Source of the DNA: Chthonomonadaceae bacterium
GTDB taxonomy: Bacteria; Armatimonadota; Chthonomonadetes; Chthonomonadales; Chthonomonadaceae
Direction: 5' to 3'
Length of the DNA stretch: 64,000 bases
NCBI GenBank assembly: GCA_035650735.1
Contig: DASRGZ010000059.1
Span: 1 to 64,000 of the forward strand
Of this stretch, positions 10,059-24,229 are shown piece by piece. The notes below the pieces were generated by a model. The model worked only from the letters and a program-made list of their open reading frames with translations, was not told the DNA's origin and searched no databases. The number at the start of each line of letters is the position of its first letter. Position 1 is the first letter of the stretch. Both the position numbers and the translations under genes were made by a program.

Positions 10059-10119
10059 AGCCCTCACCTCTATTCCGGCAGGGTTTAGCCTGCCGGGTTT
10101 TAGAAAGGTTCTGAACGCA

Positions 10120-11004
10120 ATGCCTGCCACGGGCACGATCTTAGATGCGACGTTCTTAAAGAAGCTGGAGCGGCTTTCCCTGGCGACCAAGCGGCCTTTT
10201 GCCGGCCAGATGAAGGGCGAAAAGCGCTCCGTGAAGCGGGGAACCAGCGTGGAGTTCGCCGACTACCGCGAATACGCCCTCGGCGACGACCTGCGCTACG
10301 TGGACTGGAACACCGCCGCGCGCCTGGAGAAGATGTTCCTCAAGCTGTTTGTGGAGGAGGAAGACCTCTTCCTGGCACTGCTGCCGGATACCAGCCGCAG
10401 CATGGACTTCGGCGACCCGAAAAAGCTGCACTATGCCATCCAACTGGCGGCGGCGCTCGGCTACATCGGCCTTTCCAACTACGACCGCGTGAGCGTCCAG
10501 CCGTATGCCGCCGCGCTGGGCAAGCCGCTTCCCACGCAGCGCGGCAAGGCAGGCGTGCTGCCGTTCTTCGCCTACCTGGAACAGCTAAAAGCCGGAGGCA
10601 CGACCTCCTTCGCCACGGCGCTGCACCGCTTTGCCGCCTCTGTGCGGTACAAGGGCGTGGCTATCGTCTTCTCGGATTTCTTCGATCCCAACTGGCAGGA
10701 GGGGCTGAAGGCGCTGCTGGCGCGCGGCTTTCAAGTGGCGGTGCTGCATATCCTCTCGGAAGAGGAGATCCATCCGACGCTGCGCGGCGACCTGCGCATC
10801 ATAGATAGCGAGACGGGGGAAAGCAAAGAGATGAGCGTCAATCCACAACTCCTGACGCGCTATCAGCAGACCTTTGACGCCTTCTGCGCCGAGATCGAAA
10901 CGTTCTGCCACCGCTACGGCATTGACTACCTGCGCGCCTCCACGGCCCTGCCCGTCGAGGACCTGGTGTTGAAGTACCTGCGCCGGGGCGGATTGGTGAA
11001 ATAG
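10120..11004 (+). CDS. DUF58 (vWA-like) protein
   Basis: GTSVEFADYREYALGDDLRYVDWN, MIDAS-like DTSRSM, FSDF. Confidence 0.92.
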   Translation: MPATGTILDATFLKKLERLSLATKRPFAGQMKGEKRSVKRGTSVEFADYREYALGDDLRYVDWNTAARLEKMFLKLFVEEEDLFLALLPDTSRSMDFGDPKKLHYAIQLAAALGYIGLSNYDRVSVQPYAAALGKPLPTQRGKAGVLPFFAYLEQLKAGGTTSFATALHRFAASVRYKGVAIVFSDFFDPNWQEGLKALLARGFQVAVLHILSEEEIHPTLRGDLRIIDSETGESKEMSVNPQLLTRYQQTFDAFCAEIETFCHRYGIDYLRASTALPVEDLVLKYLRRGGLVK

Positions 11005-11013
11005 GGAGCCACA

Positions 11014-12726
11014 ATGAAAGCCCTGCGTACCGTCAATATGATCTGGGAGCGGCGTTACCGGGGGACGTACCCGGTGGCGCGCTTTGGCCTGGCCGATGAC
11101 GGCACGGTGGTTCTGGCCGTGCCCCGCCCGCTGGAGGCCCGCGCCTACGACCTGACGCACCTGCGCCCGGACGGCAGCGCCGAAGTCCGGGCCGGCTTCT
11201 CCGTCGAAACGCTGCTCAAGCTGGAGGCCACGCCCTATGCCGACGATTTCCTGGGCATGACCGCCGACGACATCTATCTGTTTCGGGCCGGAAGCAAGAG
11301 CCGTTTCCTGGGCGAGCGCCGCATCTCCTATGTGGACGCGGCCCTGAGCGCCGACGGGCAGCGCCTGGCGGTCGGCTTCTCGGATATCGCGGGCGCAAGC
11401 TACATGCTGGCTTACGGCGAGATCGGGGGGCGTGTCCTCTGGACGCGGGACATGGACTCGGCCTTATCGGCGGTCACCATCAGCCGGGATGGCCGACAGA
11501 TCGTCGCCGGCGCGGAGGATGGGACGATCTGGCGGATGGACGCCGCGATGCAGGATATCTGGCGGTTCATGCAGGAGGAGGCCGTGCGGGCGCTGGCCTG
11601 TTCCGCCGACGGCAGCGCGGTCGCCTACGGCACGGCGGGCGGGGCGGTTGGCCTGATTGATGCGGAGGGGGCGCGGCGCTGGGAGGTGCGCGTAACCGGC
11701 GAGATCGCCGCGCTGGCGCTCTCCGGCGAGGGAACGCTCTGCGCGGTGCTGTGCTGTCCCGCAGAGGGAGGAGGGACGCCGCGCCTCCTCTGCCTGGTCG
11801 GGGAGGGACAGGTCGGCTGGGAGTATGCAGCGGAGAAGCGGCTGGTCGGCCTGTCGGTTTCGGCCAACGGCCTGTATCTGGCGGCGAGCGCGCGGGACGG
11901 CACGCTGGCGGTGTATGAGGTGGTGCCGGGCGAGGCGCAGGGCGTCGTCGGCGGGGCCGGATTGCCGGGCGCGACCGCGCTGGCCCGGTCCGGGGAACAG
12001 GCGGAGGCGGGCGACCTGGAGGGCGCGGTGAGGACGCTGCGCGCTGCACTGGAGGCCAACCCGGCGGATTGCGCGCTGTGCGAGGCGCTGATCGCGCGGC
12101 GGCAGGAGTGGCTTTCGGCGGTGCTGGCGGCGGCAGAGGCGCAGATGGAGGCGGGGGACCTGGATGCCGCCGTAGCCGCGCTGGAATCGGCGCTGCGCCT
12201 GGAACCGCAGGAGTCTTCCGTCGTTTCCCGGCTGGAGGCGGCGCGTCTGCGGCGGGCCGAGCGCCTGCTAGAGACGGCGCGCAGCCACGCGGCTGCCGGA
12301 GAGGGAGAGGCCGCCGAAGCTGCGCTATTGCAGGCCATTGCCGATGCGCCGCTACGGGTCGAGGCGCGTCGGGAACTGGGCGCTTTGCGGCAAGAGCGCG
12401 CCCAGGAGGCAGCCGCTGAGGCCGAGCGCCTGCTGGCCGAGGGCGACCTGGAGGGAGGAGTCGCCGCGCTGGAACGGGCGCAATCTCTGGCGCCCACCCC
12501 GGAAATCGACGAGAAATTGGCCCGCGCGCAGGTGGCGCACGAGTTCATGCAGGGAATCGCGTTCTACAACCAGAAGCGGTATCATGAGGCCGTTTTCCAG
12601 TTTAAGAAGGTGCTGGCGCGTGACCCCGAACACGGCGAAGCCCGGCGCTACCTGGGCTATGCGCAGAAGTTCGCGCAGGATACACTGACCGGCGATCTTA
12701 CCGACCGCTTCAGCCGGCTGGAGTGA
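11014..12726 (+). CDS. WD40/PQQ-type beta-propeller plus C-terminal TPR protein
   Basis: Repeated (L/I)S(A/R)DG blades in the N-half; helical TPR repeats such as YHEAVFQFKKVLARDPEHGEARRYL in the C-half; no signal peptide. Confidence 0.8.
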   Translation: MKALRTVNMIWERRYRGTYPVARFGLADDGTVVLAVPRPLEARAYDLTHLRPDGSAEVRAGFSVETLLKLEATPYADDFLGMTADDIYLFRAGSKSRFLGERRISYVDAALSADGQRLAVGFSDIAGASYMLAYGEIGGRVLWTRDMDSALSAVTISRDGRQIVAGAEDGTIWRMDAAMQDIWRFMQEEAVRALACSADGSAVAYGTAGGAVGLIDAEGARRWEVRVTGEIAALALSGEGTLCAVLCCPAEGGGTPRLLCLVGEGQVGWEYAAEKRLVGLSVSANGLYLAASARDGTLAVYEVVPGEAQGVVGGAGLPGATALARSGEQAEAGDLEGAVRTLRAALEANPADCALCEALIARRQEWLSAVLAAAEAQMEAGDLDAAVAALESALRLEPQESSVVSRLEAARLRRAERLLETARSHAAAGEGEAAEAALLQAIADAPLRVEARRELGALRQERAQEAAAEAERLLAEGDLEGGVAALERAQSLAPTPEIDEKLARAQVAHEFMQGIAFYNQKRYHEAVFQFKKVLARDPEHGEARRYLGYAQKFAQDTLTGDLTDRFSRLE

Positions 12727-12730
12727 GAAA

Positions 12731-13816
12731 ATGCAGACTCCTGTGGCTCAGGCGAAGGCAGTCGAAGAAAGCCTATCACTGATGCAGATAGCGCGCTTGC
12801 TCAACGCCCCGATCCCTTCGGAGGCGCGCGACCGGGCCGTCCGGCAGTTGTTGCCTTTCCTCTGGAGCCGCAAGCCCTGGCTGCGCTACCGCGCGCTCTG
12901 TACGCTGACCACGCGCATCTACCTGCCGTATGGGCTGCATCCGCTGGAGTGGCGGTCGTTCCCCAACATCTTCCGACGCAAGCTCCTCGCCCTCGGCTAT
13001 CGGCAGATGCCGGAGACCCCGGAACAGCGGCGCGCTGCCGTCAATGAGGCCCTGTTCGCGCTGCTGGAACGGATGGTGGCCTCGTTGGGAGTCTGGGTGT
13101 CCGTTTCCCTGGATGTCGCTGTAGATACCTGCGAGGCCGTCGGGCGGCTGGGGCTTTACGAGGGGGAGGCGCACCTGCTGAGTCTGCTATATTATTGCGA
13201 CCGTGGAACGTATGATCTGATGGGCAGCCTGCGCATGGCGATCATGCTGGCGCTGGCCGCGCTGCCGCCGGAGCGCCTGGAGCGCTTCTGGAAACAACTG
13301 AGCCACGGGCGACGCGATCAACGTGAGCTGCTGGCCGCTGCCATTCATTACATGAGCAACCCGGAAGCCGTTCCCTTCCTGATGCACGCCCTGCCCTACC
13401 AGACCGGCGAGTTTCAGGATCAGATCGCCCGACCTATTCTGCTCAAGCTGGGCAGCCTCGGCGACCTGAGGGCCCTGCCCGTGCTGCAAGGGATCGCCCG
13501 CGACGAGGACCATCCGCTGCGTCCGGTCGCGCGCAAGGCCATTCAGCGGCTGATGAAGCAGGCGCAGGGACATGAGGAGGTCACGCTGGTGCGCGCGGCG
13601 CAAGCCTCCACGCCGCATGCCGATACCCTGCTGCGGCCCGCCCGCGAGAGGCCGGAGACGGTCCCGGAGGAGCTGTTGCGCCCTGCCGAGTCGGAGAGTC
13701 AATCCGGCGCGCATTCCCGATCTATGCCGGAGCCGCAGCCAGGCCCCTTCCCTGTGGATGGAAACAATGAGGCCGCGAGAACTCCAGGTTCCAGGGGGTT
13801 AGAGGTGAAGGACTAG
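12731..13816 (+). CDS. HEAT-repeat protein with LLRP tail, paralog 1
   Basis: LAALPPERLERFW, AVPFLMHAL, LGSLGDLRALPVL; tail TLVRA/TLLRP/ELLRP. Confidence 0.8.
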   Translation: MQTPVAQAKAVEESLSLMQIARLLNAPIPSEARDRAVRQLLPFLWSRKPWLRYRALCTLTTRIYLPYGLHPLEWRSFPNIFRRKLLALGYRQMPETPEQRRAAVNEALFALLERMVASLGVWVSVSLDVAVDTCEAVGRLGLYEGEAHLLSLLYYCDRGTYDLMGSLRMAIMLALAALPPERLERFWKQLSHGRRDQRELLAAAIHYMSNPEAVPFLMHALPYQTGEFQDQIARPILLKLGSLGDLRALPVLQGIARDEDHPLRPVARKAIQRLMKQAQGHEEVTLVRAAQASTPHADTLLRPARERPETVPEELLRPAESESQSGAHSRSMPEPQPGPFPVDGNNEAARTPGSRGLEVKD

Positions 13817-13932
13817 AGCCCCTGGCCTGCGGATGGGAGCAATGAGGCCACTGAAACGCCGGCCTCAAGGCGACGGTCTGGCAGAAGGCCAGTACCCTGC
13901 CCTGCGGATGGGAACAATGAGGCCACTGAAAC
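13745..13932 (+). repeat. Three ~38-bp direct repeats at exact 75-bp period
   Basis: Consensus CCCTGCCCTGCGGATGGGAACAATGAGGCCACTGAAAC; the CCTG(C/T)GGATG core starts at 13751, 13826 and 13901. Confidence 0.85.
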
Positions 13933-14007
13933 TGTCAAACCGGTGACACGGGAAGAGAGGCCGCGTCCTGCCCCGCCTGCTGCGCAACGCCGCGCGGAGC
14001 CGTATTA

Positions 14008-14976
14008 ATGCCATTCTGGGATCGCCTGTTTAAAATCAACGTGCCGTCCACTTACCACTGGGAGCGTGTCTTTGCGCGTGCCCATGCCCTGGAACAGCGC
14101 GGGGAAGACCCGCGCCGCAACCCGGACATCGGCGAGGGGCTGGGCCTGCTCTGGGAGGAGAACCTGATCGCCCCGTCCGAATCGGCGACCTCGGCAGACC
14201 AGGCTTTCCTGCGGGATTTTGTCTGGTATCTGCGTCAGCGCACCCCCAAACCGCCGCCTGCGCCGGAAGCGCGATATCAGGCGGTGGTGGAAGCGCTGCG
14301 GGACGCCATCCGAGCCAACACGGAGGAGTTACGGCTGACGGAGGAGCCCTTCCCAATAGATAATCTGCGGCGGGCCATCTGGATGGTCGAGCAGTTGCAG
14401 GCGGCGGAGCTGCACGCTGTCTGCTGCGAACTGCTCGTGACGGTGAACGCCACCCTGATTCGGGAGCGGCAGGGCAATCGCGTTCCCCCATTGGAAAGTC
14501 TGCGCACGGAGCTGCACGGCTGCCTGGCGGCGCTGCCCCCGGACGCGATGCCGCGCTTCTGGGAGATGCTGCAAGCGGAAAGCACCTCCGAGGATTTCTG
14601 GCCGGTGGCCGCGCGGATGCGCGACCGGAGGGCGATGCCCTTCCTGCTGGAGGCGCTGCCGGTTGTGCCGCCGGATGGCCAGGCGATAATCGCCGTGACG
14701 CTGGGCAATATCGGCGATACGCGGGCCTTGCCGGCCTTGCAGCAGTTAGCCGCAGAGGAGACAAGCCTGGTGGCGCCCATTGCGAAGGAAGCCGTAGCGC
14801 GTATCCTGCGCACGAGCGGGGACGACGCCGCGCTGCTGCTGCGCCCCACCGACGCGCCCCACGCGGGCAGCGCCTCGAAAACGCTGCTGCGTCCTGCCGC
14901 CGCAACGCCCGCAGCGGCCAGCCGTCCCGAAGAATTGCTGCGTTCCAGCAACATGCCCCTGGAAAAGGAGCCGTGA
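14008..14976 (+). CDS. HEAT-repeat protein with LLRP tail, paralog 2
   Basis: LAALPPDAMPRFW, AMPFLLEAL, LGNIGDTRALPAL; tail LLLRP/TLLRP/ELLRS. Confidence 0.8.
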   Translation: MPFWDRLFKINVPSTYHWERVFARAHALEQRGEDPRRNPDIGEGLGLLWEENLIAPSESATSADQAFLRDFVWYLRQRTPKPPPAPEARYQAVVEALRDAIRANTEELRLTEEPFPIDNLRRAIWMVEQLQAAELHAVCCELLVTVNATLIRERQGNRVPPLESLRTELHGCLAALPPDAMPRFWEMLQAESTSEDFWPVAARMRDRRAMPFLLEALPVVPPDGQAIIAVTLGNIGDTRALPALQQLAAEETSLVAPIAKEAVARILRTSGDDAALLLRPTDAPHAGSASKTLLRPAAATPAAASRPEELLRSSNMPLEKEP

Positions 14977-14982
14977 CGATCC

Positions 14983-16053
14983 GTGGAGGCCCACGATGAC
15001 ATACGCATCTATCTAAAAGGCACGGAAACGCACCTGGCGCGCGCGTATATCGCGGCCGGGCGCGAGGCGCTGGCGAGTCCGCGCGCGTCACGGGAGCACG
15101 CGGAGGCGCGCACCGTCCCCGGCAGCCGCATCGCCCGGCTTCTGGCCCTGCTCTGGCACCCGGAGGCCGACATCCGCAAAGCGGCGGCGCTGGCCCTGGC
15201 GGGCGGGAATCGGGAATCGCGCTACGTGCCCCAGTACGGCCACTTCGCCAGCGCGTTCTTGAGTTATCTAACGAGCCACGCCCCGCACGCCCCGGCCAGC
15301 CCGGCGGAGCGATACGCGGCGGTCGTCCATGCCCTGCGCGTGCTCCTGGATCGCAACGCCAGCGATATCCGCGCCATGGGCAACATGAGCTACTCCTTCC
15401 TGGGCAGCGCGCTCTATCTGGCCCTGCTATATACGTGCCGGGATGTGATAGAGGCGGTACGCCGCCTGCGCGTCTCCGCTGCCCACACGGAGCTATGCCG
15501 CCTGCTCTGGCACCTATCGCATGTGAATCTCACGCGCCGGCTCAACAGCGAGGACTGGGTGACGCTGGTGCAGACGGCGTGCGCCGCCTTTGCCGCGTTG
15601 CCGCCCGACGAGATACCGGACTTCTGGCACAGCCTGATGCACCGCTCGCTGCCGCGTCGCCTGGCGGTCGCGCCGGTGCTGAGCCATCTGCGCGATGACT
15701 GCGCCGTGCCCTACCTGCTCCATGCGCTGAGGGAACAGCCGCCGTGCATCGCCCAGCCCATCATCGAATGCCTGGGACGGTTGGGCGACCCGCGCGCCCT
15801 GGCGCTGCTCCAGTGCATCGTCGAGGGGAGAGATCGCCTGCTGCGCAACCATGCCCGGCTCGCCATCGCCGCCATCGGGCGCGCCCACGCCAACGGACCG
15901 GCCCGCACGCTGCTGCGCCCTCTGGAGACCAATCCAGACGCCGATCCGGCCAGCCTGCTGCGCCCGGCCCACCCCACCGGGGCGATGGAACCGCCGGAAG
16001 AGATGCTGCGCGTCCCCGATCCGCCCTCCGACCCTGCCGGTGAAGAGCCATGA
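14983..16053 (+). CDS. HEAT-repeat protein with LLRP tail, paralog 3
   Basis: FAALPPDEIPDFW, AVPYLLHAL, LGRLGDPRALALL; tail TLLRP/SLLRP/EMLRV. Confidence 0.8.
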   Translation: MEAHDDIRIYLKGTETHLARAYIAAGREALASPRASREHAEARTVPGSRIARLLALLWHPEADIRKAAALALAGGNRESRYVPQYGHFASAFLSYLTSHAPHAPASPAERYAAVVHALRVLLDRNASDIRAMGNMSYSFLGSALYLALLYTCRDVIEAVRRLRVSAAHTELCRLLWHLSHVNLTRRLNSEDWVTLVQTACAAFAALPPDEIPDFWHSLMHRSLPRRLAVAPVLSHLRDDCAVPYLLHALREQPPCIAQPIIECLGRLGDPRALALLQCIVEGRDRLLRNHARLAIAAIGRAHANGPARTLLRPLETNPDADPASLLRPAHPTGAMEPPEEMLRVPDPPSDPAGEEP

Positions 16054-17336
16054 GCGATCCCAGGCCAGAATCATTTCATTCTGACCCCCACCCCCAAGAA
16101 CAGGGGAGGGGAGAGGCCCTCACCCCCAACCCCTCTCCCGCAGCGCGGGAGAGGGGGAACGGAGAAGCGGGGTTACCCCCTTCCCTAGCGAGCGACGAGC
16201 GGCCAGGGAAGGGGACCGGGGGATTAGGTGCAACTCAGGAGAGAGGAGACTTGGCTTCTCCTCTCCCCTCTCCTTACGAAGGAGAGGGGCCGGGGGGGAG
16301 GTCTTCTAGGGAGAGGGCCACAGGCGTACAGGCGCAGAGCGAGGAGGAGCGCGGCGTCTGGTCTCCGGCGCTCTCCTTTGGCGAGCCGGAGGAAACCCGA
16401 CCCGTCCCTGCCCCTCCGCAGGAGGTGCAGCTGCGCTGGGACGAGCGGCTGATCACGCTCTGGAACGCGCGCCTGAGCGTCGCCATCCAGGCCGCCGGGG
16501 AACTCTATGCCGTCGATAGCGAGGACCTGCTGCCTCTGGAGGACGTGGCCGACGATCTCTCCACGCAGTTCTGGCGCCTCTTGAGCAGCCAGCAGACAAG
16601 CCTGCCGCCCTCGGCCCCGGCCCGCTACTATGCGGTGGTCAGGGCGGTCTGGCAGGTATTGCAGGAGGTCCGTCAGGGGCTGGCGACGCCCGAGCTGCCG
16701 GCGAAGCTGGCGGTGGCGCTGCGCCCGGTACGCAAGCTGCGCCCCGGAATCCTGACGGCGGAAGTCTGCGCGGCGCTCTACTACTATCATCGCGGCGTCT
16801 GGACACCCTACCTGACCAAGCCGGAGCTCTGGATAATTCGGACGGCCCTGGCAAAAACCATTGCCGCGCTGCCGCCGGATGAAATGGACGCTTTCTGGGA
16901 GAACCTGCAAAGCTCCGATACGCTGATTCGCGACGCTATGCGGCTGGGCCTGACGTTCCTGCGCTCGGCTCATGCCGTGCCGCACCTGCTGCGCGGGCTG
17001 GAGCGGATTCCCGATAACGCCACCCGCGCCGCCATCGTGGATTGCCTGGAGGAGATCGCTGACCCGCGCGCGCTGGCCCCGCTGATACGGCTGCGCCAGG
17101 AAACCGCGCAGTATGATTGGCCGCTCTCCCGCCAGATCGCTCGCGCCATTCGCATCATCGAGCAGCAGAATCGCGACAATGGCCACCGCACGCTGCTGCG
17201 TCCCTCGGCGACGCCGGCAGATGACGAAGAGGCGCTGCTGCGCCCTGTCACGGCGGCGCCTGATACCCGGCAAGCTGCTGAAGCCGACCGCGCTCAATTG
17301 CTGCGCCCGGCTTCTGAGGAAGACGAGAAGACCTGA
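16050..17336 (+). CDS. HEAT-repeat protein with LLRP tail, paralog 4 (repeat-derived N-terminus)
   Basis: IAALPPDEMDAFW, AVPHLLRGL, LEEIADPRALAPL; tail TLLRP/ALLRP/QLLRP; ATGA overlap with the upstream gene. Confidence 0.78.
   Translation: MSDPRPESFHSDPHPQEQGRGEALTPNPSPAARERGNGEAGLPPSLASDERPGKGTGGLGATQERGDLASPLPSPYEGEGPGGRSSRERATGVQAQSEEERGVWSPALSFGEPEETRPVPAPPQEVQLRWDERLITLWNARLSVAIQAAGELYAVDSEDLLPLEDVADDLSTQFWRLLSSQQTSLPPSAPARYYAVVRAVWQVLQEVRQGLATPELPAKLAVALRPVRKLRPGILTAEVCAALYYYHRGVWTPYLTKPELWIIRTALAKTIAALPPDEMDAFWENLQSSDTLIRDAMRLGLTFLRSAHAVPHLLRGLERIPDNATRAAIVDCLEEIADPRALAPLIRLRQETAQYDWPLSRQIARAIRIIEQQNRDNGHRTLLRPSATPADDEEALLRPVTAAPDTRQAAEADRAQLLRPASEEDEKT
16117..16301. repeat. Three REP-like CCCCTCTCC...GGAGAGGGG hairpin elements inside a coding region
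   Basis: Copies at about 16117-16156, 16176-16228 and 16263-16301; same family as the intergenic copies at 21809, 22361, 26820 and ~32805. Confidence 0.8.
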
Positions 17337-17354
17337 TCTCCGGCCCGCACGCCT

Positions 17355-18467
17355 ATGAGCTGGAAGGATACAGAGGGAAAAGAGAGAGGCGAAAGTGCGG
17401 CCCGAAGCCGCCTCCAACGCCTGGAAGAGCTTCGCCTGGACCTTAGCCGCAAGAGCGCGGCCCGCCGCGCCTATGCTGTCGAGACGCTGCTCTCCCTGCT
17501 CTGGGTAGAAGAGGGCCGGGAGCGGCTGGCGGTCGCCTGTGCTCTCTGCGGCTACCCGCCGCAGGTTGGCAAGGCGGAAACGCCGCTCTGCGTCACGCGG
17601 CTCTGTTCCCGCCTGAGCCGCACCGTGCCCGACGACGATTTGCCGCTCCCACCCCCGGCCGCAGAGCGCATCGCCTGGGCCGGGCGCGCGGTCACGGCCC
17701 TGCTCACCGAGTCGCTGGATGCCCTCAAGGCGGCGGCGCGGGAGCAGACCGAGACGAATGCCCGTATCATCCACCGCGAAGCCAGGGTCTTGCAGGATGC
17801 GCTCGCGCTGGCGTGGTGTCTGCGCTTTGCCGAGACAGCCGAGCCGTGCGTGCGCCTGCTGCGTTTCCTGCCTGCCGAGCTCGTGCGCGAGCCAGGGCCG
17901 CTGGCGCACTACGTCCCCTTGCTGCGGGAGGCGGCGGCGCACGCACTGGGAGCCCTCGCGCCGGATGACCTCTCCGCCCTCTGGGACGCGATGGGCAGCC
18001 GGGACGCCGCCGCCCGCCGCGACCTGCTGCCGGCGCTGGACTATCTGCACGACCCGCGCGCCGTTCCCTACCTTACGCGCCTGCTGGAACGCCGCAACGA
18101 ATGGCCGGAGGGCGAGCTAATCGGCTGGTTCGTCGTGCGGGCCTTTGAGCGCATCGGCGACAAACGCGCGCTCCCGGCCTTGCGGCGGTTGGAGGCGCAG
18201 GGCCGACGTGGCACGCTGCACCAGGCGATGCGTCGGTTCCTACGCGGGTCCGAGGCGGGCTTAAGTTCCGATCTGAGGCTTGAGGTACAGCGCGTCATTC
18301 GGAGTCTGGAGCAGGGGAAGGACTCGCGCCAACGCAAAGAGTTGCTGCGGCCCGCCCAATCCCAGACCGGAGAACTGCTGCGGCCCGCCGTCGCCGCGCC
18401 GGAGGAGGAAGATTGGCAGGAGCGCGCCCAACTTCTACGTCCGGAGGAGGCTTCCCCCGAATTCTGA
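17355..18467 (+). CDS. HEAT-repeat protein with LLRP tail, paralog 5
   Basis: LGALAPDDLSALW, AVPYLTRLL, FERIGDKRALPAL; tail ELLRP/ELLRP/QLLRP. Confidence 0.8.
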   Translation: MSWKDTEGKERGESAARSRLQRLEELRLDLSRKSAARRAYAVETLLSLLWVEEGRERLAVACALCGYPPQVGKAETPLCVTRLCSRLSRTVPDDDLPLPPPAAERIAWAGRAVTALLTESLDALKAAAREQTETNARIIHREARVLQDALALAWCLRFAETAEPCVRLLRFLPAELVREPGPLAHYVPLLREAAAHALGALAPDDLSALWDAMGSRDAAARRDLLPALDYLHDPRAVPYLTRLLERRNEWPEGELIGWFVVRAFERIGDKRALPALRRLEAQGRRGTLHQAMRRFLRGSEAGLSSDLRLEVQRVIRSLEQGKDSRQRKELLRPAQSQTGELLRPAVAAPEEEDWQERAQLLRPEEASPEF

Positions 18468-18476
18468 ACGAGGATC

Positions 18477-18618
18477 TCCCGTTACGCCGGCGCCCTCTTG
18501 GCGCAGTCGCGGTTCCGTCCGCGAGGACGGTTGGCCGTAGGCCCACCAGACGGGTACTTTCAGTGCCCGGCTCTCAGGCGGTCACGCATGGTCGGAATAA
18601 GCCCGATCGCGTAAGGGA
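18477..18618 (+). ncRNA. Candidate structured RNA or leader (family not recognised)
   Basis: Closing stem TCCCGTTACGC/GCGTAAGGGA with four internal hairpins, including CCGTCC-GCGA-GGACGG (GNRA loop); G-U pairs favour the + strand. Confidence 0.4.
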
Positions 18619-18636
18619 AGTGAGGATAACGAATCG

Positions 18637-19536
18637 GTGTCTCTAGTCAAGCACAAAGCGCAACCGCCCGCTCTCCGGACGCCGCCGCGCCCGGCGCGAG
18701 GGCACGGCTTCGGCGGATGGTGGTACCGCACGGGGCGAATCGGAACTAGCCACGCCGTCCTGTGCCTGCTCGCCGTGACGACCCTGCTGCCCTTCCTCTG
18801 GATGGTGCTGGCCAGCTTCAAGGCCCGCGCCGAAGTCGAGCAGCTCAACCCCTTCCCCACGATCTGGCACCCGGAGAACTACGCCAGGGTTTTTCAGGAG
18901 ATCCCCTTCGCCAAATACTACTTTAACAGCATCTTCATCGCCGCCTGGGTCACGGCGCTGCAATGCCTGACCAGCGCTATGGCCGCCTACGCCTTCTCGC
19001 GCATCCAGTGGAAAGGCCGGGATACCGTCTTCCGGCTCTACCTGGCGACTCTGATGATCCCCGGCGTGGTCACCATGATCCCCAACTTCACGCTGATGGT
19101 CAAGCTGCACCTGCTCGACTCATATGCCGGCCTCATCGTTCCGGCGGCCTTCAGCGCGTTCGGCACGTTCCTGCTGCGCCAGTTCATGCTCACCATCCCG
19201 CGCGCCCTCGACGAGGCCGCCGGCATGGACGGCGCGACCCACTGGCAGATCTTCTGGGACGTGATCCTGCCGCTGGCCCGCCCCGGCCTGATCACCCTGG
19301 CCGTCTTTACCTTCATGGGCACCTACGGCAGCTTTACCTGGCCGCTCATCCTGATCAAGAGCGAGGGCTTGCGGACCCTGCCCATCGGCATGCTCTACTT
19401 CGATAGCGTCTACGGCAAGCAGACGGAGCTCATCATGGCGGCCAGCGTCATGAACATCGTGCCGCTGATCTTGCTGTTTGTCGTCACGCAAAAGTACCTC
19501 GTGGAAGGCATCCAGCTTGGCGCGGTCAAGGGATAA
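18637..19536 (+). CDS. Carbohydrate ABC transporter permease (MalG/UgpE type)
   Basis: Six TM helices; EAA loop IPRALDEAAGMDGA; C-terminal GAVKG. Confidence 0.93.
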   Translation: MSLVKHKAQPPALRTPPRPARGHGFGGWWYRTGRIGTSHAVLCLLAVTTLLPFLWMVLASFKARAEVEQLNPFPTIWHPENYARVFQEIPFAKYYFNSIFIAAWVTALQCLTSAMAAYAFSRIQWKGRDTVFRLYLATLMIPGVVTMIPNFTLMVKLHLLDSYAGLIVPAAFSAFGTFLLRQFMLTIPRALDEAAGMDGATHWQIFWDVILPLARPGLITLAVFTFMGTYGSFTWPLILIKSEGLRTLPIGMLYFDSVYGKQTELIMAASVMNIVPLILLFVVTQKYLVEGIQLGAVKG

Positions 19537-20276: not shown

Positions 20277-21638
20277 TCAGGCGGCGTGCGGCAGGCGTTG
20301 CGGCGCGGCATCCGAAGGAGCGCTCTTGCTCTGAGCCAGCGCGGCAAGCGGTGCAGGCTCCCGGGCGTCGCGCGGATAGATCGCCGATCCCAGACCCAGC
20401 CGCAGGGGCGCGCGGCCCGCATGCCAGCCCTGCTCCTCCAGCCAATCACCCAGGGCAACGGCCAGACGCGCCTGGACGACCCGCACCTTCTCGCCCGTGA
20501 ACGGCAAGATCAGGGCAAAGGTATCCTCGCTATAACGGGTCAGGATGTCCACGCGGCGCACCGTCTGGCGGATGATCTCCGCCGTGCCCAGCACCGCGTT
20601 GTCCGCCTTGAGCGTTCCCTGGGCGCGGGCAAAGCTCTCCAGCCCGCCCAGCACCACGAACAGGAGCGCCAATTCGCTCTCCATCCGGCTCGCCCGGCTC
20701 AATTCCTCTTCCAGGCGGCTCTCGAAATAGTTGCAGTTATAGAGCCGGGTCTGGCTATCCACGACGGAGACCTGATCGAGCAGCGCCTGCTGCTCCTCCA
20801 GGCGCTTGCGCATCTGCGCCATCTTCATCTGCGCGTCGCGCAACTCGTCCGTGACCAGGATCTTCTTGAGCTTGCGGGTGGAGTTGCGCAGGATATGCGA
20901 GACGTAATTACAGGAGATGCCAAGCTGCCGGGCTATCTCGGTCTGGTTCAAATCCTTGTAATAGAACTCGAAGAGGACCGTCTGCTCCAGGTCTTTGAGC
21001 TTATCCATCGCCGTTTCCAGCACGATCCGGTCTTCGACGGGCAGTTGGAAGGAGACGGCGACATCCGCGCCGGCCTGCCGCTCCATATCAATGGCCCCGC
21101 CGCCATCGTCTTCGCTTTCGCTGCCACCGTCAATGGATTGGACTTTGAAGACCTCCCGCGTGGTCAGCATCTCCGTGACCGTCTCTTCGGACAGGCCCAT
21201 CATCTGGGCTATCTCGGCGTTGGTGGGCGGACGGCTGAACTGTTGGGCCAGCGAGTCGATGACCCGCGTCATCCTCTGGTTCAACTCCTGCAGCCAGGCC
21301 GGTTCCTTGATGATCTTGCCCCGGTCGCGCAGGTAGTGCTTGATCTGTCCAATGATAAAATGAGTGGCGTAGGTCGAAAATTTAACGTTCTTGGTTGGGT
21401 CGTAGAGATCGATAGCCGTAATCAGGCCGATATAGCCTTCCTGCGCCAGATCCTCGACCGGCTCGGCGGAGCCGGAGAAGCGGCGAGCCACGCTCTCCAC
21501 CAGGCCGGTATACCGCAGCACGATCCGGTCGCGCAGGGCAGAATTGCCGGTCTGCCGGTACTCCAGCAGCAGCTGCAAAACCTCTTCTTCCGTGCGCTTG
21601 CGTTGGGCCTGATTCGGTTTTGGGTTTTCTATGAGCAT
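20277..21638 (-). CDS. SigB/SigF-type sigma-70 factor fused to a degenerate GGDEF domain
   Basis: Region 2 EDLAQEGYIGLITAIDLYDP...FSTYA...IKHYLRD; region 4 LNQTEIARQLGISCNYVS; C-terminal DSQTRLYN...RRVDILTRYSEDTF. Confidence 0.9.
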   Translation of the reverse strand: MLIENPKPNQAQRKRTEEEVLQLLLEYRQTGNSALRDRIVLRYTGLVESVARRFSGSAEPVEDLAQEGYIGLITAIDLYDPTKNVKFSTYATHFIIGQIKHYLRDRGKIIKEPAWLQELNQRMTRVIDSLAQQFSRPPTNAEIAQMMGLSEETVTEMLTTREVFKVQSIDGGSESEDDGGGAIDMERQAGADVAVSFQLPVEDRIVLETAMDKLKDLEQTVLFEFYYKDLNQTEIARQLGISCNYVSHILRNSTRKLKKILVTDELRDAQMKMAQMRKRLEEQQALLDQVSVVDSQTRLYNCNYFESRLEEELSRASRMESELALLFVVLGGLESFARAQGTLKADNAVLGTAEIIRQTVRRVDILTRYSEDTFALILPFTGEKVRVVQARLAVALGDWLEEQGWHAGRAPLRLGLGSAIYPRDAREPAPLAALAQSKSAPSDAAPQRLPHAA

Positions 21639-22588: not shown

Positions 22589-23407
22589 ATGTTTAAACGC
22601 ATAATGCGCTACCTACGGGCACTGATAATGGGTAAGCTCGATCAATGGGAAGACCCAGAACTGATCATTAACGAAGCCGTTCGCGAGATGAAGGAAAACC
22701 AGATCAAGAACCGCGAGCTGGCCGTGCAAGCCATTACCCAGAAGAATAACCTGCAGGCCGAGGTAGACAAGGAAGAGCGGCTTATCGCCGAGTTGGAGCG
22801 CAAGGCGACCCTGGCCCTGCAATCCGGCAACCGGGAACTCGCCAAGCAGTTCCTGAAAGAAAGGGCCCTGCATGATCAGACCCTGCAGAGCATGAAGGCC
22901 AACCTGGCTGCCGCCACCGAAGCAGCCGAAAAGGTCAAGCAAGCCATCCGTCAGGAAGAGGAGCGCATTCGCGTGCGCACCGCCGAGGCGCTGGCCATGA
23001 AGGCCAACATGAAGCAGGCCCAGATCCAGATCAAGATCAATAAGGCCCTCGACCAGTTCCAGTTCAGCGAGAACGAGCAGCAGTGGTCGCACGTGCAGGA
23101 GCGCATCCAGACCATGCAATCGGAGGCCTCGGCCCGCGCGGAAGTCGCCAATACCAGCATCGACTCGAAGCTGCGCGAGATGGAGGTCTCCCAGATGGAT
23201 GCAGAGGCCGAGCGCCAGCTGGCCGAGCTGGAGGCCAAGATGGCTATCGGCGGCACCACCGCCACCAACTACGCCACCGCCAATGTCCAGCAGGTGCAGA
23301 CGGTCGGCGGCGGTGCCGTCAACTCCAACGGCGCTGGCGGCGCGCAGGAGAGCGAGCTCGACCGGCAGCTGCGCGAGCTCGAAGCCAAGCTGGGCGGCCA
23401 GAAGTAA
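22589..23407 (+). CDS. pspA: PspA/IM30 (bacterial ESCRT-III) family protein with a Vipp1-like C-terminal extension
   Basis: N-terminal amphipathic helix, EDPELII, long coiled coils, GNRELAK; extra C-terminal helix after a Gly/Asn-rich linker. Confidence 0.9.
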   Translation: MFKRIMRYLRALIMGKLDQWEDPELIINEAVREMKENQIKNRELAVQAITQKNNLQAEVDKEERLIAELERKATLALQSGNRELAKQFLKERALHDQTLQSMKANLAAATEAAEKVKQAIRQEEERIRVRTAEALAMKANMKQAQIQIKINKALDQFQFSENEQQWSHVQERIQTMQSEASARAEVANTSIDSKLREMEVSQMDAEAERQLAELEAKMAIGGTTATNYATANVQQVQTVGGGAVNSNGAGGAQESELDRQLRELEAKLGGQK

Positions 23408-23513
23408 TCGGTAGAAGGCAGGGCATTGGGGCGATGGCGTGGGCAGGGCCTCAATGCCCTGTTTGCGCCTGCCGCCCGGTATCGCCCGGCAGCACCCCAC
23501 CTAACCGTGGTTT

Positions 23514-23583
23514 AAGGCGGAAGGAGGAAGGAGGAAGAGAGCAAGAGCTTTTCTTCATCCTTCATCCTTCCTCCTTCCGCCTT
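23514..23583. repeat. Inverted heptamer repeats (GGAAGGA / TTCATCC) forming a hairpin
   Basis: AAGGCGGAAGGAGGAAGGAGGAAG ... CTTCATCCTTCATCCTTCCTCCTTCCGCCTT. Confidence 0.7.
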
Positions 23584-23644
23584 TCAAGAGGCAGCCACGC
23601 TTTCGCGCTGTGCCATCTATTTCCCGAAATTTGGAATCAATTCC

Positions 23645-24229
23645 ATGAGTATCCCACAACGTCTCTATCGTATTGCCAAGTCTAAACTCAACGAGCTTAA
23701 GGATCGCATCGAGCAGCTCGACGCAGAAACCCAGCTGGACCCGGAAACCGAGCGGAAGCTCCAGCAGGCCCAGTATCGCCGGGATGCCCGCCGCGAACTG
23801 GAGGATGCGCTCTCGACGCCGGCCCCGGCTCCGCCTCCCGCCTCGTCTCCGCCACATCCGAGCGACCGTTCTACCGTTCCCTCGCAGCCGTCCCTGCCGC
23901 GCCGCACGCCGGAAGAGATCGCGCGCGGGACCTTTTCTAAGACCGCTCCTCCGCCCACCAGCGCGCCCACCACAACCACGCCAACGGCCCAATCAGACCC
24001 GCTGGCCTACCACTACAGGCTGCTCGGACTGGAGCCGGGAGCCGATTGGGTCGCCGTGCAGAACGCCTATAACAACCTGGCAGCCCGCGCCGAGCCGGGC
24101 CGTTTTGCCGCCGGTTCCGAGGAGGAGCGCACGGCCCAGGAGATCCGCAAGCGCCTGGATGCTTCTTACCAGGTGCTGCGGGATGCCCTGGACCCGACCG
24201 CGCGCCGTTTCGATCTTATCGAGTACTGA
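23645..24229 (+). CDS. Protein with a C-terminal J-domain-like fold lacking HPD
   Basis: YRLLGLEPGADWVAVQNAYNNLAARAEPGRF...LDASYQVL; Pro-rich linker. Confidence 0.7.
   Translation: MSIPQRLYRIAKSKLNELKDRIEQLDAETQLDPETERKLQQAQYRRDARRELEDALSTPAPAPPPASSPPHPSDRSTVPSQPSLPRRTPEEIARGTFSKTAPPPTSAPTTTTPTAQSDPLAYHYRLLGLEPGADWVAVQNAYNNLAARAEPGRFAAGSEEERTAQEIRKRLDASYQVLRDALDPTARRFDLIEY

Follow-up and report, generated by a model that had tools for sequence, protein, structure and literature searches.

The HEAT-like repeats of PBS-lyase-type proteins are the natural basis of the designed alphaRep binders. Short C-terminal docking peptides carried on disordered linkers are likewise familiar, e.g., the C-terminal peptides of FtsZ and SSB and the triplet repeats of CsoS2, and in the MoxR-vWA-propeller ternary conflict systems the genes for these three proteins are linked in one locus. 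The gene set MoxR-DUF58-vWA corresponds to the MoxR proper (MRP) arrangement, as stated in a passage of PMC12067865 that cites Snider and Houry (2006). Here we compare with these systems a group of seven genes of a soil bacterium of the family Chthonomonadaceae (assembly GCA_035650735.1, contig DASRGZ010000059.1), located in a window of 64,000 nucleotides, i.e., the whole stretch analysed. The genes encode a DUF58 protein, a protein combining a WD40-like propeller with tetratricopeptide repeats (PROP) and five soluble HEAT-repeat paralogs, H1 to H5 (Table 1). H1 to H5 are five orthologue classes of Chthonomonadaceae in conserved order, and all five end in a conserved tail with three L[LV]R motifs, hereafter the triple-LLR tail. 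The H subfamily and its tail appear to be undescribed; HEAT-like repeats, gene sets with DUF58 and docking peptides at protein ends belong to known categories. Genomes, contigs, loci and families are designated below by our own handles (G, C, L and f, respectively); f1 is taken as Chthonomonadaceae because two named orthologues of H3 bear that family label, and f3 is the sister family in the same order.

The paralogy of the five proteins proposed in a preliminary description of the locus is borne out by local identities of 25-39% (E 1e-5 to 1e-23) and, for H3 against H4, by a profile comparison with 99.9% probability over 294 columns. A quick tree of 53 rows, combining H1 to H5 with 48 proteins of relatives (from 20 H loci of 16 relatives, plus three from PROP loci), resolved five clades with SH-aLRT values of 96-100, each containing one protein of the window; the tree and the counts leave out the H-like matches G009:C137, G015:C717 and G005:C529 and the genomes of a later, wider survey. 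None of the 16 multi-gene arrays, each lying on one strand, departs from the 1-to-5 order; the arrays are kin and not independent of each other. Full-length H3 is found in 23 of 42 family genomes and in none of 26 other genomes of the order. The complement of classes varies among the 19 H-bearing genomes examined (Table 1), with combinations such as 3+4, 4+5 and 2+4. In G004, a single contig, only H3 and H4 occur, separated by about 1 Mb; G012 and G022, each of five contigs, have H4 and H5 without H3; in G001, H1 is truncated at its 5' end and preceded by other genes. The five classes have been held apart since early in the family, and the five-subunit hetero-oligomer of the preliminary description loses its footing: because near-complete genomes carry only H3+H4 or H4+H5, a fixed five-subunit complex is unlikely.

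The C-terminal regions had been described as disordered tails. That of H3 is indeed of low confidence and unstructured in the model, yet the three L[LV]R motifs are present in five of five proteins. The tails of H1 to H5 score 36-50 bits against a tail profile whose seeds included them. In the last 120 residues, the strict three-motif pattern occurs in 19 of 10,551 six-frame open reading frames (ORFs), versus 0-1 in 20 shuffles; it has no internal match in the genome, and a search of the genome's other proteins for the strict motif as a single copy found none. The profile recovers 28 proteins at 22 bits or more in this genome, and two further ones that are weaker or shorter. The majority of carriers are HEAT proteins; 12 members in the genome have predicted membrane helices and H1 to H5 have none. 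The tail is also attached to unrelated domains: it terminates a DUF6487 zinc ribbon protein, a Spo0M-domain protein and HEAT-less membrane hairpins (twice in P0002). Tail carriers often stand in tandem arrays. A second array (C97:10760-15905; L148) encodes four soluble HEAT proteins with the triple-LLR tail, the first of them a family-conserved member of 665 residues. Elsewhere, genes for an extracytoplasmic function (ECF)-type sigma factor, a probable anti-sigma factor and a tail-bearing membrane protein occur in the same order in both families (C40:19958-23714, i.e., L138; and L162).

A search of 1.84 billion cluster representatives with the 43-position tail profile returned 1,904 matching clusters at 50% identity. 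Among the best 150 cluster matches, the tail lies at most 40 residues from the end in 148, and in the 145 that could be parsed the arginine is invariant in all three motifs, the two spacings being 14 residues in 121 of 145 and 15 or 16 in 143 of 145. The residues after the third motif vary in sequence and in length, from 1 to about 50. Membrane helices are predicted in 73 of 99 longer library matches. Within the phylum (301 genomes), a profile built from one genome, with at most 24 candidates scored per genome, detected the tail in 21 of 22 genomes of f1, 13 of 16 of f3 and none of 262 others. A tag of about 40 residues, present on about 30 proteins per genome and keeping its invariant residues and spacing in 1,904 clusters, suggests that this little-studied order has one hub that has gone unrecognised; the H array provides soluble, easily expressed carriers of the tag. 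Against solved structures the tail has no relative (best E 2.1), and the Atlas search with it gave no usable match. No model matched in Pfam or NCBIfam covers the H subfamily or the tail. Neither was found among the papers listed, mostly outside subscription journals, in searches for Armatimonadota C-terminal motifs and linear motifs (tail) and for Armatimonadetes HEAT-repeat and Chthonomonadaceae proteins (H subfamily).

Upstream of their tails, H1 to H5 share the motifs AL[PA]P[DE]x4[FL]W, A[VM]P[FYH]L and [GA]DxRAL in five of five proteins; the P-x-P..R..AV pattern, also said to be common to all, is present in four and diverges in H5. Pfam HEAT_2 matches all five, only H3 above the curated cut-off. 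The model of H3 (predicted local distance difference test, pLDDT, 89; predicted template-modelling score, pTM, 0.82; 41-row alignment) is all-helical to residue 303, with a predicted N-terminal helical bundle (about 45-205), three HEAT repeats (205-303) and a low-confidence, disordered tail. For residues 205-299 the best structural counterpart is an alphaRep chain with its HEAT repeats (Z 11.7, rmsd 2.3, 94 residues). Modelled alone, the front domain reaches a pTM of 0.88; Foldseek gave it no match at E 0.001 or below, and its best fold match (Z 8.5, syntaxin-type bundles) is in the range expected for any helical bundle. Orthologues of H3 share a near-invariant hairpin at 130-154 that is missing from H4, and those of H4 have their own strongly conserved patch on the HEAT repeats, different from that of H3. 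The invariant columns of both are mostly hydrophobic or structural and include no catalytic set, which would fit binding surfaces. No 19-residue segment of H1 to H5 exceeds a hydropathy of 1.64, hence none has a membrane anchor; the earlier view of the five as cytoplasmic, non-enzymatic and alpha-helical is in agreement with these results.

The Atlas search with H3 recovered generic HEAT_2 clusters; among defence-system models, a single generic HEAT-ARM model is matched by two of the seven proteins, along about 100 of its 1,972 positions. No whole-protein match to the phycobilin lyases CpcE, CpcF and NblB was obtained: H3 scores 27.8 bits against NblB (cut-off 300) and the other four proteins have no NCBIfam match. 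Prediction of an H4+H3 complex (19- and 30-row alignments) scored 0.00 against a mark of 0.32, which is evidence neither way.

Two repeats affect the array. The first ~100 codons of H4 (16050-16350, + strand) are a genome-wide palindromic repeat inserted in frame, of which one arm has 161 genomic copies (up to three mismatches); the site shows a read-depth spike, and the insertion is missing from the same-genus orthologue. Related repeats occupy the gaps at 10059-10119 and 18468-18636. In addition, three head-to-tail copies of a 75-nucleotide unit, unique in the genome, run from the end of H1 into the gap before H2 (13743-13967, + strand). A CRISPR reading, suggested at first sight, was rejected without a search for cas genes, the whole unit including the 'spacer' being 73.5% alike and having no other genomic copy; more likely, 25 codons were triplicated locally.

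With moderate confidence, we propose that H1 to H5 are soluble adaptors: the triple-LLR tail would dock, by three simultaneous weak contacts, onto a single oligomeric partner in the cytoplasm that is common to all carriers, and each predicted front domain would select its own binding partner or cargo. An oligomeric, patterned partner is suggested by the spacing of the motifs, fixed at 14 and 15 residues, and the tails of the membrane members would lie on the cytoplasmic side. DUF58 and PROP would have been placed before the array by rearrangement in this genome, PROP presumably working with the AAA+ ATPase and NHL propeller of contig C22. Several observations weigh against this proposal. The tail profile derives from one genome and at most 24 candidates were scored per genome, so that distant forms were possibly missed. 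Spacing is looser in H4 (14/21) and H5 (11/19), and in G006, G003 and G013 the tail has partly degenerated. Across 40 extra loci, tail-bearing genes have no conserved neighbour in common that could be a candidate partner. The distributions of PROP, of the NHL gene and of the gene for a sigma factor fused to a GGDEF-type domain downstream of H5 (sigma-GGDEF; Table 1) do not track that of the tail. Finally, 3 of 19 PROP loci (G013, G015, G016) have an H gene no more than about 5 kb from PROP, and an H gene adjoins sigma-GGDEF in G007 and G017; this proximity exceeds the expectation under free shuffling, so that a functional tie to PROP may exist.

Candidate partners for the tail were also considered individually. 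PROP, NHL and sigma-GGDEF were rejected as universal receptors because tails occur in the sister family, where the thresholds applied gave neither full-length PROP nor NHL. A microcompartment shell was discarded, PF00936 being not found in this 97.6% complete genome. The end of FtsZ in this genome carries a motif of proline, two hydrophobic residues and arginine, one residue out of register with the tail, and mimicry of the FtsZ tail is a weak lead.

A possible tie to PROP is best considered from the usual context of that gene. PROP has a match in 24 of 24 family genomes, weak (27%) in the same-genus G001. An NHL-repeat gene lies directly upstream of it in 13 of 19 true orthologue loci, and in three more genomes by coordinates, and is itself usually preceded by a PF00004 AAA+ ATPase gene. 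PROP is a conserved family gene and, judging from these neighbourhoods, normally third in an AAA+/NHL/PROP module. This three-gene AAA+/NHL/WD40-TPR module occurs family-wide (L027, L028, L031, L033); here its AAA+ and NHL genes lie away from PROP, at C22:15142-17898. A search of genome contigs for related loci with PROP returned nothing, and no description of the module was found in the literature, again mostly outside subscription journals. We take its ATPase to be Ycf46-like, a name that none of the searches gave; in L028 and L041 it contains a long insertion that resembles an intein. The co-oriented junction from PROP to H1 was seen in this genome only. The sigma-GGDEF gene, which possibly encodes a nucleotide-linked sigma factor, is kept in 29 of 40 relatives; it lies 1.8 kb beyond H5 here and converges on the 3' end of the array, as it does in four relatives.

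These neighbourhoods raise the alternative that the H proteins belong to the AAA+/NHL/PROP module as subunits or depend on it as clients, the propeller or TPR of PROP binding the H front domain and the AAA+ protein, rather than MoxR, remodelling the assembly, perhaps under sigma-GGDEF. Full-length H genes, NHL (38/41) and full-length PROP are confined, or nearly so, to the same family, and H genes stand tail-to-tail with PROP or sigma-GGDEF in five of 18 H-bearing relatives (G007, G013, G015, G016, G017) and near both in this genome. The shared family range can nevertheless be put down to kinship, the linkage outside this genome is on opposite strands, and PROP and NHL are kept without an H-class match in five or six family genomes, namely G005 (97% complete), G008 (95%), G011 (92%), G002, G024 and G025; we regard this alternative as unlikely. 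Because of the tail-to-tail encounters in the five relatives, an old neighbourhood in which AAA-NHL-PROP-sigma faced the H array on opposite strands is likely. Of similarly low probability is a broader scheme in which the tail would be the address label of a Chthonomonadales sorting or coat system on dozens of inner-membrane HEAT proteins, with H1 to H5 as ordered soluble adaptors added in one family and disassembled by the once-neighbouring AAA+/NHL/propeller-TPR module.

Alternatively, the tail might bind the family's own HEAT domains head to tail, so that soluble and membrane members would build a coat or lattice of their own in which H4 forms the constant core and H1, H2, H3 and H5 are interchangeable. 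HEAT and armadillo solenoids commonly bind arginine-rich peptides, and complexes of this kind are present among the fold matches; HEAT repeats directly precede the tail in most carriers, tandem arrays are frequent among them, and H4, with its strongly conserved HEAT surface, is present in 19 of 19 H-bearing genomes. Such self-assembly is nonetheless doubtful: the tail is undocked in the single-chain H3 model, HEAT surfaces differ widely between membrane and soluble members whereas the tail does not, and the H3 and H4 genes of G004 are far apart. Still less probable is a role of the tail as a processing or turnover signal, i.e., a degron or the site of an arginine-directed modifying enzyme or protease, instead of a localisation tag. 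A strictly terminal, disordered, arginine-invariant element that is portable between unrelated domains could serve this purpose, but the variable end after the third motif is unlike typical C-terminal degrons, and three copies at fixed spacing are better explained by a patterned binding surface.

The remaining gene, DUF58, is an ordinary member of its family, and the MIDAS-like DTSRS at residue 90 is intact, as noted before. An orthologue was detected in 17 of 24 family genomes; at E 1e-40 the other seven, including the H-bearing G012 and G022, gave none. DUF58 adjoins PROP in 0 of 17 family genomes holding both. The 20 DUF58 loci compared (of 21, that of G003 being left out) contain no H-class gene, although two of them have, at a distance of 2-5 kb, a generic HEAT protein that lacks the tail, and the 20 H-array loci contain neither DUF58 nor PROP. 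In the sister family, DUF58 follows a rhomboid gene in four of four loci and precedes a BatA/vWA gene in two (G031, G026), with MoxR in the same G026 locus. Here the set is scattered, with DUF58 on C59, the vWA orthologue at C206:6574-8472 and the MoxR orthologue at C175:24466-25467; the genome has five MoxR genes (PF07726), none on this contig, in accordance with the earlier statement that the window lacks one. PMC4959169 describes the genome of the Chthonomonadaceae type species as disorganised, with scattered genes; the present case shows that tight gene spacing is weak evidence for an operon in this family. By its context in relatives, DUF58 is evidently a displaced member of a MoxR-DUF58-BatA/vWA set and no conserved part of the H array; it likely still works with the MoxR and BatA/vWA proteins encoded elsewhere. 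A solenoid complex of five subunits, with PROP as its organiser and with DUF58 and a MoxR encoded elsewhere to service it, could draw on the tight co-orientation of all seven genes, bridged by public contigs, and on the five MoxR genes; given these DUF58 contexts and the variable H complement, it is highly improbable. What persists of the undescribed seven-gene system is an undescribed H subfamily in conserved order and an opposite-strand remnant of an old neighbourhood with PROP or sigma-GGDEF, the seven-gene unit itself not being conserved.

The physical arrangement in this genome is sound. The seven ORFs are contiguous on the + strand, with intergenic distances from DUF58 to H5 of 9, 4, 191, 6, -4 and 18 bp; the co-orientation and close spacing reported earlier are thus confirmed, five of the six gaps being under 20 bp. 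Public contigs span DUF58-PROP-H1-H2-H3 unbroken and without differences in three of four sequencing runs (three studies; all three runs are possibly the source of this DNA). Since single contigs bridge DUF58 to H3, misassembly of the DUF58-PROP-H junction is ruled out. A promoter and terminator scan gave five weak sigma-70-like sites, none within the gaps between the seven genes. Beyond H5 lies a lone sugar-type ABC permease gene (18637-19536, + strand), likely another displaced gene. Further downstream, a PspA/IM30 gene is followed by that of a protein with a weak C-terminal DnaJ-like match (22589-24229, + strand); this pair is absent near PROP in the 20 loci tested.

Table 1. Genes of the locus and their triple-LLR tails, in window coordinates; class counts refer to the 19 H-bearing genomes examined.
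Feature	Position	Strand	Remarks
DUF58	10120..11004	+	PF01882, 117.7 bits (cut-off 23.4); ATG start; open frame from 9904
PROP, WD40-like propeller and TPR	11014..12726	+	Pfam WD40-like and TPR families
H1, soluble HEAT paralog, class 1	12731..13816	+	in 4/19 genomes
H2, class 2	14008..14976	+	in 7/19 genomes
H3, class 3	14983..16053	+	in 14/19 genomes; HEAT_2 30.1 bits, above cut-off
H4, class 4	16050..17336	+	in 19/19 genomes; first ~100 codons are the palindromic repeat insertion
H5, class 5	17355..18467	+	in 9/19 genomes
Triple-LLR tail of H1	13571..13696	+	
Triple-LLR tail of H2	14821..14958	+	
Triple-LLR tail of H3	15898..16026	+	pLDDT 53-64, model without regular structure
Triple-LLR tail of H4	17178..17321	+	
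Triple-LLR tail of H5	18327..18452	+	
SigB/F/G-like sigma factor fused to C-terminal GGDEF-type domain	20277..21638	-	

Compared with the described systems, the window DUF58 is of the MRP kind, its orthologues in the sister family accompanying BatA/vWA and MoxR, but here MoxR and vWA are not in the DUF58 operon, and the HEAT genes are outside the set. In contrast to the ternary conflict systems, PROP has genes for an NHL protein and a PF00004 AAA+ ATPase as its conserved neighbours. The likeness to eukaryotic coat or scaffold proteins once seen in the pairing of propeller and solenoid does not extend to the solenoid part: whole-chain TM-scores of H3 against solenoids are at most 0.31, and its model places three HEAT repeats after a helical bundle, with no long stacked solenoid. 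With PBS-lyase-type HEAT-like proteins (HEAT_2 PF13646, HEAT_PBS PF03130), H3 shares three two-helix repeats with [GA]DxRAL, alphaRep being the best match; the similarity is confined to residues 205-303, no clear counterpart of the N-terminal bundle was found and the triple-LLR tail is extra. The membrane HEAT proteins carry the same tail, and H1 to H5 differ from them in their solubility, their own N-terminal bundle and their five ordered classes. The FtsZ, SSB and CsoS2 peptides would be comparable as conserved short motifs ending a disordered linker, repeated for avidity in CsoS2; the triple-LLR sequence differs from all of them, and each genome has about 30 carrier proteins instead of one.

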